Shown here: positions 56,980 through 61,816 of the stretch, in pieces
How the letters are laid out: every line of letters begins with the position of its first letter
Position numbering within the stretch: position 1 is the first letter of the stretch
Source of the DNA: Thermoplasmata archaeon
Lineage (GTDB): Archaea; Thermoplasmatota; Thermoplasmata; Halarchaeoplasmatales; Halarchaeoplasmataceae
Length of the DNA: 64,000 bases
Assembly (NCBI GenBank): GCA_046498385.1
Contig: JAWOAU010000059.1
Location: 76 to 64,075, forward strand
Reading direction: 5' to 3'
The notes under the pieces: generated by a model
Database searches by the model: none
What the model was told of the DNA's origin: nothing
What the model saw: only the letters and a program-made list of their open reading frames with translations
Position numbers and translations under genes: made by a program

Positions 56980-57213
56980 TTACCTCTTTAGGTATTCTTC
57001 CTTTATTGCCTTAGCATGGGCCATCTTCCGTTCTTGTTCTACTATCTTTTCCACTTTATCCGCCACCAGTTCGATCCTATAATACAACATATCTCTAACG
57101 GCGGCCCTAATAGCTTCCGAACGGCTTGGGAAATCGTCCATTTCAACGAGAAAATCTATGCTCTCAAGATGACTCTTGGGCAGCCTTATCGTGATTTTCT
57201 CGCTATCGGACAT
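56980..57213 (-). CDS. Ribbon-helix-helix (CopG/Arc/MetJ-type) DNA-binding protein
   Basis: RHH signature (ITIRLPKSHLESIDFLVE...SRSEAIRAAVRDML). Confidence 0.6.
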   Translation of the reverse strand: MSDSEKITIRLPKSHLESIDFLVEMDDFPSRSEAIRAAVRDMLYYRIELVADKVEKIVEQERKMAHAKAIKEEYLKR

Positions 57214-57664
57214 CTTTATTCCTCTTATATACCTTTAACGTACCTCTTTTGTACGTCGTATGTCCTACAATAGGAGAGCAGTATTTAAAAATTTCCATCA
57301 AATCTTGAAATTGTTGCTGTGCAAACTAGGAATAGAACGACAGAAATAAAAACCTCTCTATTCACTTCAAACAAATCAGTCGGACGATCCCATCGGCGGC
57401 GGCAAGTTGAGTTTTATTGACACTCTAGAAAGCTTGGTAGAAAGAACAATTCTCCAGAGAGGTCATTGGTCGAAAGATGATTTGCAAACCTTAACCCTAT
57501 CTTATCACCGTTATAGGATCAGTAGTGGGATAGGAAACGCCCACATCGGTGGGCGACAAACTCCCTACTTTTTCACTACTTTCCATTTCTTATGTTTTTT
57601 CCAATATTTCAACAATTCAATCACCTCGTCTGCGCCCTATCCGATTCCCATATATAAACCTTTT

Positions 57665-57672
57665 GTCTACCT
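57665..57672. repeat. Target-site duplication GTCTACCT (left copy) of the IS66-family insertion
   Basis: Identical 8-mer at 59289-59296, immediately outside the terminal inverted repeats. Confidence 0.8.
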
Positions 57673-57680
57673 GTAAGAGT

Positions 57681-59057
57681 TCAGCCGTGTGAAGTTTGGA
57701 TGATATATTTTCCATGTTCGATCAGATTTTGATTTTTCATGTTCATTGTGTGATACACACTTGTCAATTTTTCATAGATCCTAGCGCCTTTTTCAGTTCT
57801 GTTTCCACCGCTGATTTTTCTTGCTATGACACTGTGACGTAGTGCACGTTCACATCTATTGTTTGTACCTTCGACGTATGGATTTTTAACAAATTGGAAC
57901 AGGCTATCCTTTCGTTTCAGTAAATTTTTGACAAACTTACTGCATCGATGAGATTTATACCTACGTTTTAGTTCGTTTGACAATTCCATGTACAGCTGTT
58001 TGATATTTTCATCAGAACCTTGATGATCGAAACTCTTAGCTTTTGCATATATCTTCTTAAGCACCCTATGTATGTGTTCACCTTCTTCACCGTAGTATTT
58101 TGCCAGTTCTTTTGAATCAACGAGTAGATGCGACCAACATATTTGCTGTGGCCTTTTTCCGGTCTTTTTGGCTAATGTATCGTAGGCTGAAAACCTATCG
58201 TGCACATCCACTCCGTTGGGTTTACTACCCAACACTTTGAGTGGTACTTTATGGCATCGTGAATTTGCAATTTTATACAATGCCAGACCATCTGTTACAA
58301 AAGCCCACAACCAAACATTTTCTCCGTCTATCCTCCATGATGTTTCGTCCATGTACCGGACAGGAGCCTCTCGGAGTTTTCCTACGAGTTGGTCGTAATA
58401 TTGTCCGAACTCGTCAGCGATCCGTTCAAGGATATTACAGACCTCTCCTTCGCTTATTTTCAGGTTATATATATCCTTCAACAGTTTTACGATCGATCCA
58501 ACAGGTAACCGGAGTCCGACCTTCAAATATACCACTGTAAGCATGGTCCTCAGGCCCAGTCGTGCATTTGGTAAAGCATCTGTTACAACCGTCTCAACTA
58601 ACTTCTCACAGTCTCTGCAGTAACGGCGTTCTATAACATATTTGGTAACAACTGGATAGACTGGTGGGATGTCTTCGACAGTTCTTGTCCGTTGCTCTTG
58701 TACATTTTCGCTAAGATGATCGCCTCCGCAATCGGGACAGATATTGACAGGGACATCAATTGTCTTATCCACAAGTTTAGGCAATTTGCGATAGCGCGGT
58801 TTATGGCCTTTCTTTGCTCCCTTTTTCCTAGGAGTGGCCGTTCGTACTTTTTCTTTGATGGCATACGGTTTACCGCCTTTAACACCCACAATTTCCGGGT
58901 GTCGCATGCGATATTCTTTGTATTCTTTCTCAACTTTCTTTTTTTCTTCTGCTAGCTTTGTGATCCTCTCTTTTAATTCCTCAATTTCCTTCTTGAGCTG
59001 CTCGTTCTCTTTCTTTAGCTTCTTGTTTTCTTTGATTTTTACCACCGTCCTTTTCAT
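57681..59057 (-). CDS. IS66-family transposase (TnpC-like): coiled-coil/leucine zipper, Cys4 zinc finger, DDE domain
   Basis: N-terminal coiled coil (KENEQLKKEIEELKERITKL). Zn finger CPDCGG...CRDCEK. DDE region (RYMDETSWRIDGENVWLWAFV ... VDVHDRFSAYD ... QICWSHLLVD), matching the IS66 signature. Confidence 0.85.
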   Translation of the reverse strand: MKRTVVKIKENKKLKKENEQLKKEIEELKERITKLAEEKKKVEKEYKEYRMRHPEIVGVKGGKPYAIKEKVRTATPRKKGAKKGHKPRYRKLPKLVDKTIDVPVNICPDCGGDHLSENVQEQRTRTVEDIPPVYPVVTKYVIERRYCRDCEKLVETVVTDALPNARLGLRTMLTVVYLKVGLRLPVGSIVKLLKDIYNLKISEGEVCNILERIADEFGQYYDQLVGKLREAPVRYMDETSWRIDGENVWLWAFVTDGLALYKIANSRCHKVPLKVLGSKPNGVDVHDRFSAYDTLAKKTGKRPQQICWSHLLVDSKELAKYYGEEGEHIHRVLKKIYAKAKSFDHQGSDENIKQLYMELSNELKRRYKSHRCSKFVKNLLKRKDSLFQFVKNPYVEGTNNRCERALRHSVIARKISGGNRTEKGARIYEKLTSVYHTMNMKNQNLIEHGKYIIQTSHG

Positions 59058-59211
59058 TTTTCAACACCACTAAAATGACACGTTTCCCAAGATGTTCTTT
59101 TGGGCAATCTACCTTTGCACCAGTACCAAAAGGTGTCACTTTTCGTTCGATGAAGCCAGCTATTCCTTCAATCGTCAACTTTGTTGTCGGGTTCATCTTT
59201 ACCTTCTTCAT
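58981..59211 (-). CDS. Small IS-internal ORF with AbrB/SpoVT-like swapped-hairpin motif
   Basis: RKVTPFGTGAKVDCPKEHLGKRVILVV resembles the AbrB/MazE looped-hinge-helix. 77-nt overlap with the transposase ORF, typical of IS gene organisation. Confidence 0.45.
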   Translation of the reverse strand: MKKVKMNPTTKLTIEGIAGFIERKVTPFGTGAKVDCPKEHLGKRVILVVLKNEKDGGKNQRKQEAKERERAAQEGN

Positions 59212-59288
59212 GATATATATGATATATATATGAAGTATTTAAACCTATCGGCCACACATTGTAGACTTGTATCAAACTTCAGAAAACT

Positions 59289-59296
59289 GAACTCTT
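59289..59296. repeat. Target-site duplication GTCTACCT (right copy)
   Basis: Same as the left copy. Lies 25 bp downstream of the gyrA stop. Confidence 0.8.
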
Positions 59297-59320
59297 ACGT
59301 CTACCTCGCTGCGAGCCGGA

Positions 59321-61816
59321 TTATACTTCTGCCGTCTTTTCCTCGGCCTCTTCCACGATCTCTTCTTCCTCTTCTTCGCTGATGACCTTGGACATGGCTA
59401 TAAGCTCATCACCGGTCTTCAACTTCATCACCCTGACACCCATTGTATTTCTGCTCTGAAGGCTTATCTCCCCTGCTCGGGTGCGTATGACCATGCCGTG
59501 CTTGCTCATGAGCATTATCTCTTCATCCTCTTCCACAACTCGGGCACATACCACGTTCCCGTTTCTTTTGTTAGTCTTTATGGTGATAACACCCTTGGCA
59601 CCTCGGTGTGTTTTTCTATACCTGCTCACCTCCGTTCTCTTGCCGTAACCATTCTCAGTTAGGTTCAAAAGCACGTCGTCATCATTAACCAGCGTCATGC
59701 TCACTACCTTGTTATCTCCTTCTACATCGGCACCTTTCACGCCCATGGTGTATCGGCCAGTAGCCCTTACTTCACCCTCGTCGAACCGAACAGCTTTACC
59801 GTTTTTGGTGGCCAATAACACTTCTCTACTGCCGTCAGACATCTTAGTGTCAACCAGTTCATCGTCATCCTGCAGTCGTATAGCCCATATCCCTGTTACA
59901 CGGGGTCTACTGTATGCGGAAAGCACGGTCTTCTTGATCTTTCCCTTCTTTGTGGCGAACAGCAAATAATTGTCCTCTGTGAACTCGCTAACCGGTATCA
60001 GGTCCTCTATCTTTTCGTCGGGTTCCAGCCTGGGAAGCATGTTTACTATGGGCCGACCTCTGGACCTGCGCCCGCCCTTGGGTAGTTTATATGCCTTCAA
60101 CCAGTACACTTTGCCCTTGTTAGAGAAGAACAGCAGATAATTATGTGAGTTGGTTACGAACAGGTCGACCACATGGTCCTCATCCTTGGTATCCATACCG
60201 ATAAGTCCTACCCCTCCGCGGCGCTGCTGTCTATAGGTATCAAGCGTTAGCCTCTTTATGTATCCTTTCTGAGTCAGGGTCACCACATAGTCCTCAATCG
60301 GTATCAAGTCCTCGTTTTCCATCTCCACTGCGTCCTTATCTATCTCCGTTCGCCTTTCGTCTCCGTATTTGTCAGCCAACTCTCTAAGTTCGTCTTTGAT
60401 TATCCCTAAAACTCGTTCCTCGCTGCGCAGAATATCCCTGTAATCCTTTATCTTCTCCTGCAGCTCTTCGTACTCGTCCTGCAGTTTTTCCCTTTCTAAA
60501 CCGGTCAATCTGCGCAACCGCATATCAAGTATGGATTGGGCCTGTTTATCGCTTAGTAAGAACCGGGTCGTCAGTCGTTCTTTAGCTTCGTTCTGATCCT
60601 GGGAACTTCGTATTATACGGATCACTTCATCGAGGTTGTCCAAAGCGGTGAGAAGCCCTTCTACGACATGGGCCCTTTCTTCCGCCTTTTTTAGATCGTA
60701 TTTAGTCCTTCTCTCCACCACGTCGACCCGGTGGTCGATATAATACTGCAGTGTATCCTTCAGGGACAGTATCTCCGGTTCGTTGTTTACCAGGGACAGG
60801 TTGAGTACACCGAAGGTAACTTCCATCTGGGAGTGTTTGTATAACTTGTTCAAAACCACCTCGGGGATAGAATCTCTCTTTAGCTCCAGTACCACTCTTA
60901 TCCCTTCTCTGTCTGATTCGTCTCTCAGGTCCGATATTTCTGGTATAACTTCGTTCTTAACCAGTCTGGCAAAGCTCTCTATAAGGTTGGATTTGTTGAC
61001 CTGATATGGTATTTCATCGATGATTATTCGTGCCTTCTGGCCCTTCTTTGCTTCTTCGATCCTGGCTTTGGCCCGTAACTTGATCTTCCCCCGGCCGGTT
61101 TTATAGGCCTGATATACTCCTTCGTAACCATATATGATGCCACCTGTAGGAAAATCAGGTGCGGGAAGGTATTCCATAAGATCTAAAAGTTCTATCCCAG
61201 GTTCATCTATTATCTCGATTATAGCGTTAACCAGCTCGTTTAAGTTGTGGGGTGGTATGTTTGTAGACATCCCAACCGCTATACCTGAAGAACCGTTGAG
61301 AAGCAAGTTGGGCAGTTTGGCCGGTAGAACCTTTGGTTCCACCAAAGAACCGTCGTAGTTATCTCTGAACTCAACCGTTTCCTTTTCCAGATCCTGGAGC
61401 ATCTCTTCTGCGATTTTCTCCAGCTTTGTCTCCGTGTAACGCATGGCCGCTGCGGAATCTCCGTCGATGGAACCGAAGTTACCTTGTCCGTCGATAAGCG
61501 GATATCTTAAAGAGAACTCCTGTGCCATACGTACTAATGCGTCGTAGACCGCTTGGTCGCCGTGGGGATGATACTTACCCAGTACGTCACCCACCACCCT
61601 AGCGGACTTCTTATGTGGTTTTTTGGATGATAACCCCTCCTGATACATGGAATAAAGTATGCGGCGGTGCACGGGCTTTAACCCGTCTCTAACGTCCGGT
61701 AGTGCCCTACCTACGATAACGCTCATTGCATAATTTATGTAGGAATCCTTCATCTCTTCCTCAATATTCTTTTCTAGTACTTTTTCTGCAAAATCAACTT
61801 CTTTAACTTCAGACAT
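59321..61816 (-). CDS. gyrA: DNA gyrase subunit A
   Basis: Active-site Tyr region (AAMRYTE), the GyrA-box-like motif QGNFGS context and C-terminal beta-pinwheel repeats, 831 aa. Acidic C-terminal tail. Confidence 0.9.

Follow-up and report, generated by a model that had tools for sequence, protein, structure and literature searches.

An intact IS66-family insertion sequence downstream of gyrA in a Thermoplasmata archaeon and a possible preference of its relatives for host core promoters

A 64-kb stretch of contig JAWOAU010000059.1 (GenBank assembly GCA_046498385.1) from a Thermoplasmata archaeon, referred to throughout as the window, contains an insertion sequence (IS) that, taking the explanation as a whole, is very probably one intact copy of an archaeal IS66-family element of the subgroup lacking tnpA and tnpB (ISBst12-like), of the archaeal type in which a DUF2080 gene precedes the transposase. 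Considered alone, the element is ordinary and sits harmlessly after gyrA. The part worth following is a promoter-proximal rule that appears when the element is compared with some 80 archaeal relatives and 38 bacterial ones: the flanks of these insertions allow the tentative proposal that the tnpA/tnpB-less IS66 lineage chooses its targets by the host core promoter, and that a single rule operates in archaea and bacteria alike.

The boundaries of the element are defined by 26-nt terminal inverted repeats, one at the end that holds the transposase stop codon (the T-end) and one at the end that holds the DUF2080 gene (the O-end), which match at 22 of 26 positions, comprising 12 of 12 terminal bases, a 5-nt gap, and a 9-nt block (TGAAGTTTG); complementarity of this extent at a fixed position pair has a chance probability of about 1e-9. 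The terminal 12-mer (GTAAGAGTTCAG) has only two sites in the window, at 57673-57684 on the forward strand and at 59287-59298 on the reverse strand. At the left junction, GTCTACCT directly abuts GTAAGAGTTCAGCCGTGTGAAGTTTG, and at the right junction, CAAACTTCAGAAAACTGAACTCTTAC directly abuts a second GTCTACCT; the abutting octamers are identical at 8 of 8 positions (chance probability about 1.5e-5). The octamer is not rare (3 occurrences in the window versus 1.8 expected), and its weight as evidence derives from its position against both inverted repeats rather than from rarity. An IS66-family insertion with GTAAG termini, matching in 12 of 12 terminal bases and a second 9-bp block and flanked by perfect direct repeats, had been proposed from the sequence in the original prediction, and the repeats, the duplication, and the Pfam and NCBIfam matches described below bear this out. 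The left copy of the duplication was placed correctly, whereas the right copy lies 10 nt beyond the interval first assigned to it (59289-59296); the element measures 1626 bp rather than 1616 bp, and the gyrA stop codon (59321-59323) is 22 nt from the IS end and 14 nt from the duplication rather than 25 bp away. The insertion thus occupies the spacer after gyrA and disrupts no gene. All coordinates are collected in Table 1.

Table 1. The insertion sequence, its component parts, and its immediate setting, in positions of the window.
Feature	Position	Strand	Basis or remark
Insertion sequence	57673-59298	genes on -	1626 bp; bounded by inverted repeats and 8-bp duplication
Left 8-bp target-site duplication	57665-57672		GTCTACCT; read in the sequence
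Right 8-bp target-site duplication	59299-59306		GTCTACCT; perfect match to left copy
Terminal inverted repeat, transposase-stop end (T-end)	57673-57698		GTAAGAGTTCAGCCGTGTGAAGTTTG; overlaps last transposase codons (…TSHG and stop)
Terminal inverted repeat, DUF2080 end (O-end)	59273-59298		reverse complement GTAAGAGTTCAGTTTTCTGAAGTTTG
IS66-family DDE transposase, 458 aa	57681-59057	-	Pfam, NCBIfam, homologue alignment
DUF2080 transposase-associated protein, 76 aa	58981-59211	-	Pfam PF09853, NCBIfam NF033496
Element's own TATA box	59236-59243	-	TTTAAATA; 24 nt upstream of DUF2080 ATG; preceded by GATAGG
Host core promoter-like site (B recognition element, BRE, and TATA box)	57651-57664	-	AAAAGG (57664 to 57659), then TTTATATA (57658 to 57651); points away from IS; putative promoter
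gyrA (context)	59321-61816	-	Pfam DNA_topoisoIV (3.4e-174) and DNA_gyraseA_C

The larger of the two genes encodes a transposase that matches Pfam DDE_Tnp_IS66 (PF03050; 7.8e-38, 130.9 bits versus a cutoff of 23.1), zf-IS66 N-terminal to the catalytic domain (PF13005; 2.4e-10, 41.1 bits versus a cutoff of 27.3), and NCBIfam transpos_IS66 (NF033517; 245.5 bits versus a cutoff of 180). Its N-terminus is a coiled coil, followed by a CxxC…CxxC zinc finger (C107, C110, C147, and C150), and alignment with 22 homologues places these four cysteines, D237, D287, E403, and the motif C307-W308-x-H310 in invariant or nearly invariant columns; from the family pattern, D237, D287, and E403 are the candidate catalytic residues. 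Only two open reading frames (ORFs) are present in the 1626 bp, and they match only DUF2080 and the transposase, such that the ORF list and domain searches uphold the earlier description of a TnpC-type DDE transposase without tnpA or tnpB. As the transposase stop codon is 8 nt away from the IS end, the inverted repeat itself supplies the final …TSHG and stop codons. In transposition, the enzyme would bind the conserved terminal 12-26 nt and insert the element with an 8-bp staggered cut. Proteins 100% identical to both products are already present at NCBI, under the names IS66 family transposase and "DUF2080 family transposase-associated protein"; given that the association with DUF2080 is also already known and named, the window element adds a member to a known IS group.

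Relatives were gathered in a profile-guided scan covering a single genome from each species, which returned 80 loci (these and further loci are cited here by L numbers). The best of these (44-58% identity) belong to Woesearchaeota, Thermoplasmata, Methanomicrobiales, Methanocorpusculaceae, and other archaeal metagenome-assembled genomes (MAGs), and a DUF2080 ORF lies directly upstream of the transposase in 10 of the first 20 loci, the best matches, which are nearly all archaeal. Archaeal relatives with both ends present are 1.6-1.7 kb long and show GTAAG(A/T)… repeats and perfect 8-bp duplications (e.g., CTATTTCC in L006, ACACCTCT in L007, and GTCCCTCG in L014, as well as those of L018 and L105). 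The same pair of DUF2080 and transposase genes with GTAAG-type ends also recurs in numerous short metagenome contigs whose ends coincide with those of the IS; likewise, the contigs of the two nearest relatives, whose transposases are 86% and 74% identical to that of the window, start or stop exactly at the same termini with differing flanks, as expected for multicopy repeats. Over its terminal 21-26 nt, the T-end is identical in L079, L081-L083, and 19 metagenome contigs. Bacterial relatives are more distant (26-33% identity) and consist of single-ORF elements of 1.42-1.56 kb, many with the identical terminal GTAAGAGTTCAG, and 22 of the 38 are flanked by perfect 8-bp duplications. In a tblastn search against plasmids, the best named relatives were only ~30% identical (ISH10B and ISNpe25 families).

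With respect to age, a functional and fairly young insertion is plausible from the sequence, as it fits the perfect duplication, the open ORFs, the conserved residues, and the identical terminal 12 nt. The recent transposition proposed at the outset is thus in keeping with an undamaged copy, whereas the two checks suggested for it, namely a search for further copies and a search for an empty target site, gave nothing in its favor. Weighing against a young and active element, no second copy exists within the 64-kb window, no identical copy was found in the indexed collections, and the exact 25-nt junction-free pattern (an uninterrupted junction would read …CCTTTTGTCTACCTCGCTGCG…) is absent from metagenome contigs. 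An exact look-up in the contig index had neither the transposase nor gyrA on record. In gyrA relatives L138-L141 (~90% identical), no IS follows gyrA, but the DNA beyond the gene has no homology to the window; this unrelated DNA, with a tRNA gene downstream of gyrA, led to their rejection as true empty sites. That the element could be an ancient, no longer mobile relic with only the appearance of integrity is unlikely overall. Such a relic would account for the sole copy in the window, for a nearest relative with a transposase only 86% identical, and for a DUF2080 ORF that has lost its usual stop and gained 23 extra codons. It sits poorly with an 8-bp duplication that remains perfect, with two ORFs that remain open and retain all invariant family residues, and with 12 terminal nucleotides that do not differ between the two ends or from the termini of distant relatives; moreover, the closest relatives likewise possess extended DUF2080 ORFs.

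The proposal regarding target choice begins with the DNA that adjoins the T-end of the window copy. Read outward from this end, the duplication (AGGTAGAC) is followed by AAAAGG and then by TTTATATA, such that a TATA box starts 14 nt from the IS end. Exact AAANNTTTAWATA sites number 3 in the window versus 0.15 expected, and the IS abuts one of them. The same measurement was extended to every unique flank of the archaeal loci, including the 19 metagenome contigs found via the conserved 21-nt end and multicopy elements retrieved through P0036, P0069, and P0130, with a TATA box defined as TTTAWAWA with at most one mismatch and with offsets 0-59 examined. At the T-end, a TATA box occurs at exactly offset 14 in 18 of 51 unique flanks, as compared with 0-2 at each of the other offsets (mean 0.28), an excess with a Poisson tail of about 1e-26. 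At the O-end, the corresponding figures are 5 of 31 flanks at offset 14 and a mean of 0.23 elsewhere (Poisson tail about 4e-6). If two mismatches are allowed, the counts at offset 14 rise to 22 of 51 (T-end) and 8 of 31 (O-end). The 6 nt between duplication and TATA box are purine-rich and BRE-like (AAAAGG, GAAAGG, CGAAGG, AAAATG, and similar). The pattern is found separately in four different elements, including one whose termini read GATAG (5 of 8 sites) and one residing in a GC-rich host, where the TATA octamer is otherwise rare. Long co-directional ORFs begin 24-50 nt past many of these TATA boxes (e.g., L004, L005, L108, and L117), among them genes for ribosomal protein S8e (L110) and ribosomal protein L16 (L104).

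A comparable spacing is observed in bacteria. Among the 38 single-ORF elements with paired ends (relatives spanning L021-L078, e.g., L037, L038, L039, L075, L053, L061, L068, and L073), 11 have TTGACA, one mismatch being tolerated, at T-end offset 15 or 16, and no other offset shows it more than once; a TATAAT-like (-10-like) box is often, indeed usually, found about 17 nt past the TTGACA. All four copies in the MAG CAVZJH01 (L037, L038, L039, and L075) show TTGACA at 15-16. When archaea and bacteria are combined, the promoter element stands at the T-end in 29 of 89 cases and at the other end in 7 of 69 (Fisher p = 0.001).

From these comparisons, the following scheme may be tentatively drawn. 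In archaea, the 8-bp staggered cut would immediately precede the BRE, with the TATA box 14 bp away, and in bacteria it would lie 15-16 bp ahead of the -35 hexamer; in most cases the transposase end would face the promoter, which would stay intact, and no gene would be disrupted. The target would be chosen by the transposition machinery, via the promoter DNA or a factor bound to the promoter. In both domains, the expected transcription start lies roughly 37-51 bp downstream of the cut site, with similar spacing despite the unrelated sequences of TATA/BRE and -35 elements. Two possibilities present themselves: the machinery may recognize a factor bound to the promoter or promoter DNA that is distorted, or the transposase may recognize sequence in a lineage-specific manner. 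A fixed spacing to unrelated sequences, if true, implies recognition of promoter-bound initiation factors or of a shared feature of DNA structure rather than of a single sequence. No description of promoter or TATA targeting by IS66/ISBst12 elements was found in the literature, in a search outside of which ISfinder/TnPedia and the main IS66 review lay.

Several points weigh against target choice by promoter. The evidence for it is entirely comparative; about 40-45% of insertions have no TATA box at the fixed offset; some bacterial lineages (OY969415 and CAWHAE01) have no TTGACA at a fixed offset; and in the window itself, no ORF of at least 40 aa follows the TATA box adjoining the IS, which is uncertain as a working promoter because the next gene, encoding a ribbon-helix-helix (RHH) protein, seems to have a TATA box of its own. 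Some of this would also be anticipated if promoter adjacency arose by selection after random insertion, with harmless intergenic copies surviving in archaeal intergenic DNA that is rich in TATA sequences: archaeal genomes are compact, survivors are expected to be intergenic, the flanks without TATA at the offset would be unremarkable, and archaeal flanks by themselves display a weak orientation bias (Fisher p = 0.078). Selection, however, would accept insertions at whatever distance upstream of the BRE, giving a broad distribution, and what is observed is a single spike (18 at offset 14 versus 0-2 elsewhere), with the same kind of single spike 15-16 nt from TTGACA in the bacterial relatives. 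Because post-insertion selection should not generate a single-offset spike, insertions farther upstream being equally harmless, this alternative is considered rather improbable, and target choice by the transposition machinery is favored over it.

Beside the promoter spacing, the duplications themselves display a composition of their own. Positions 1 and 8 of archaeal duplications are mostly G or C, with position 8 being G or C in 33 of 38 T-end flanks, which suggests an S-N6-S preference at cut sites.

The smaller gene had been described as AbrB-like, an assignment that no test supported. Its product matches Pfam PF09853 (DUF2080, "putative transposon-encoded protein"; 5.6e-17, 61.7 bits versus a cutoff of 21.5) and NCBIfam NF033496 ("DUF2080 family transposase-associated protein"; 44.8 bits versus a cutoff of 22), and this above-threshold match together with the position directly upstream of an IS66 transposase identifies it as a transposase-associated DUF2080 protein. 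Alignment with 38 homologues, most of them 52-54 aa long, confines the conserved domain to residues 6-53; the domain is small and beta-rich with a very conserved core (VTPFGTGAKVDCPKEYLGKRVYLV). That the protein is nonetheless an AbrB/MazE-like DNA-binding regulator of the transposase is improbable. The core resembles the AbrB/SpoVT motif by eye, the predicted structure is all-beta with two long strands, and a DUF2080-labelled domain is among the antitoxins validated in the NetFlax study (PMC10440598). Five independent tests of AbrB-like nature were nevertheless all negative: for example, Pfam scans of 39 DUF2080 family members at E up to 10 gave only the DUF2080 match, a DUF2080 profile run against all PDB sequences gave only chance matches, and hhalign comparison with an alignment of four approximate AbrB/SpoVT/Abh/MazE sequences gave a probability of 0.3%. 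Foldseek with the first DUF2080 model (predicted local distance difference test score, pLDDT, 75) returned no match at E <= 0.001, and neither sequence similarity nor, with monomer models, fold similarity to AbrB/MazE/SpoVT swapped hairpins was detected; as AbrB folds are obligate dimers, monomer models of so small a domain constitute a weak probe. Regarding function, comparison with the bacterial relatives, which are without DUF2080, indicates that the protein cannot be generally required for promoter-proximal insertion; as speculation, a role in fitting the system to archaeal promoters or in controlling the transposase may be envisaged.

Expression of the two genes is predicted to proceed from the BRE/TATA promoter (TTTAAATA) in the right end of the element, as a leaderless or short-leader bicistronic mRNA; such spacing is customary for archaeal promoters of leaderless mRNAs, and the P0069 element has the same layout of BRE/TATA, 24 nt, and ATG. 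In the window copy, the usual DUF2080 stop is absent and the ORF continues for 23 extra codons, such that residues from about 54 to 76 are an out-of-frame read through the coding region of the transposase N-terminal coiled coil and the ORFs overlap by 77 nt, just as first reported. In the closest relatives, with transposases 86% and 74% identical to this one, the overlaps span 50-56 nt, and the DUF2080 protein of L081 is 67 aa, which makes the long overlap a trait of a small clade. Ten archaeal relatives have DUF2080 proteins of 52-59 aa, the stop usually overlapping the transposase ATG by 4 or 8 nt (ATGA or ATGAnTGA), and these short overlaps indicate, on the strength of the sequence pattern, translational coupling rather than frameshift fusion. 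The window transposase would be translated from its own ATG, by way of a GGTG situated upstream inside the DUF2080 ORF, in place of the ATGA-type coupling predicted for most relatives. A programmed ribosomal frameshift yielding a DUF2080-transposase fusion, as in IS1/IS3, would make sense of overlapping ORFs with an A-rich overlap and is highly improbable, having been rejected on the frame offset, the separate start, and the junctions of relatives: the combination of a -1 frame, a slippery site, and a downstream frame without its own start was not found, the transposase frame being +1 relative to ORF1 and closed by TGA two codons before its own ATG, with GGTG 9-12 nt upstream of that ATG, and relatives having a variable frame relation (+1 or +2) with overlaps that are usually of the 4-8-nt ATGA type.

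Further observations concern the ends of the element and its relatives. The last 21-26 nt of the T-end are identical across the L079 and L081-L102 elements though the neighboring DNA is ~70% identical, and this same stretch doubles as inverted repeat and as the code for the conserved C-terminal …TSHG and stop; the protein conservation at this point may reflect DNA constraint. Contig L084 (SDBU01017843.1, 7417 bp) has the T-end of the same IS at both of its ends, facing inward, so that a 7.2-kb segment is bracketed by two inverted IS copies; this arrangement could be a composite transposon. At least 14 further contigs of that assembly end in the same IS with differing flanks. The P0130 element (L124-L132) is repeatedly located beside or inside other transposase genes (DDE_Tnp_1, DDE_Tnp_1_5, and rve_3), in IS nests, and its flanks are often without matching duplications. 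Additionally, Ferroplasma acidarmanus (L137; CP004145.1, 1286892-1287080) has a lone 62-aa DUF2080 gene, situated between a hypothetical gene and a fructose-1,6-bisphosphatase (FBPase) gene with no adjoining transposase, which is probably the remnant of a lost element and thus tells nothing about insertion sites.

The immediate setting of the window copy may be summarized as follows. The neighboring gyrA product is 100% identical to an NCBI protein annotated as "MAG: DNA gyrase subunit A [Thermoplasmata archaeon]", and the host is represented solely by a MAG. On the other side of the element, a second consensus BRE/TATA (AAATTTTTAAATA; 57282-57294, reverse strand) lies about 70 nt upstream of the RHH (CopG-family) gene at 56980-57213 and is probably the promoter of that gene. 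Between the two TATA boxes, the region at 57470-57650 on the reverse strand, downstream of the TATA box adjoining the IS, contains no annotated gene; it includes GAGGTGAT followed by a 15-codon lysine-rich ORF, a 29-aa ORF (57586 to 57497), and hairpins such as GCCCACcgatGTGGGC. Its RNA folds slightly better than shuffled sequences (z = -2.5) and has no Rfam match, and the region may represent a short transcript that has escaped annotation. Between 56 and 60 kb, no non-coding RNA was detected by Rfam or tRNA scans. In L138-L141, which derive from the same study as Candidatus Haladaptatiplasma, a tRNA-like sequence is found about 100-200 nt after gyrA; set against the promoter-like site and RHH gene of the window, this implies that the region downstream of gyrBA is variable in the group.

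Among known systems, the archaeal DUF2080+IS66 elements annotated by NCBI are alike in their two-gene layout, end sequences, and promoter inside the DUF2080 end; the usual members encode DUF2080 proteins of 52-54 aa and have overlaps of 4-8 nt, as opposed to 76 aa in the window copy and overlaps of 50-77 nt in its clade. The absence of tnpA and tnpB, presented in the original prediction as a minimal version, is not unusual, being characteristic of the recognized ISBst12 group, whose IS66 elements have a single transposase gene, measure 1.4-1.7 kb, and are flanked by 8-bp repeats (PMC12898284). Within this group, which includes ISBst12 of Geobacillus stearothermophilus and ISDge4 of Deinococcus geothermalis, ISDge4 encodes a 449-aa transposase, has repeats starting with GTGACTACTCAGCA (GTGACT…) and a duplication of CCTCGATG, and has been observed to transpose (PMC12898284). 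The window element resembles the ISBst12 group in its IS66-type DDE transposase without tnpA/tnpB, a length of ~1.4-1.7 kb (about 1.35-1.9 kb by group definition), an 8-bp duplication, and imperfect GTAA/GTGA-type repeats; it departs from the single-ORF definition by adding a conserved DUF2080 gene upstream of the transposase, as do at least 10 archaeal relatives. The bacterial single-ORF relatives commonly share the terminal 12 nt (GTAAGAGTTCAG) at about 26-33% transposase identity. Canonical IS66/IS679 elements, for their part, are organized as tnpA-tnpB-tnpC over about 2.5-2.7 kb. With these the window element has in common the family features, namely the DDE domain, zf-IS66, acidic triad with CwAH-type motif, GTAAG termini, and 8-bp duplication, whereas it is without tnpA/tnpB, has a DUF2080 ORF in the upstream position, and is about 1 kb shorter.

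Finally, the putative promoter rule invites comparison with yeast retroelements, in that Ty3 integrates at the start sites of RNA polymerase III via TFIIIB and Tf1 integrates upstream of RNA polymerase II promoters. If the rule is true, it would represent a rare prokaryotic case of promoter-guided, "safe-haven" integration with a logic comparable to that of Ty3 or Tf1; IS flanks would mark promoters in uncultured archaea, a starting point would be available for asking if the transposase reads DNA bound by TATA-binding protein and transcription factor B (TBP/TFB) or by sigma factor, and a testable question on the DUF2080 protein would be framed. The likeness to Ty3 and Tf1 is a functional analogy only, consisting of a fixed short distance from the core promoter and genes left intact; the enzymes are unrelated, the hosts belong to another domain of life, and the pattern described herein is purely comparative.

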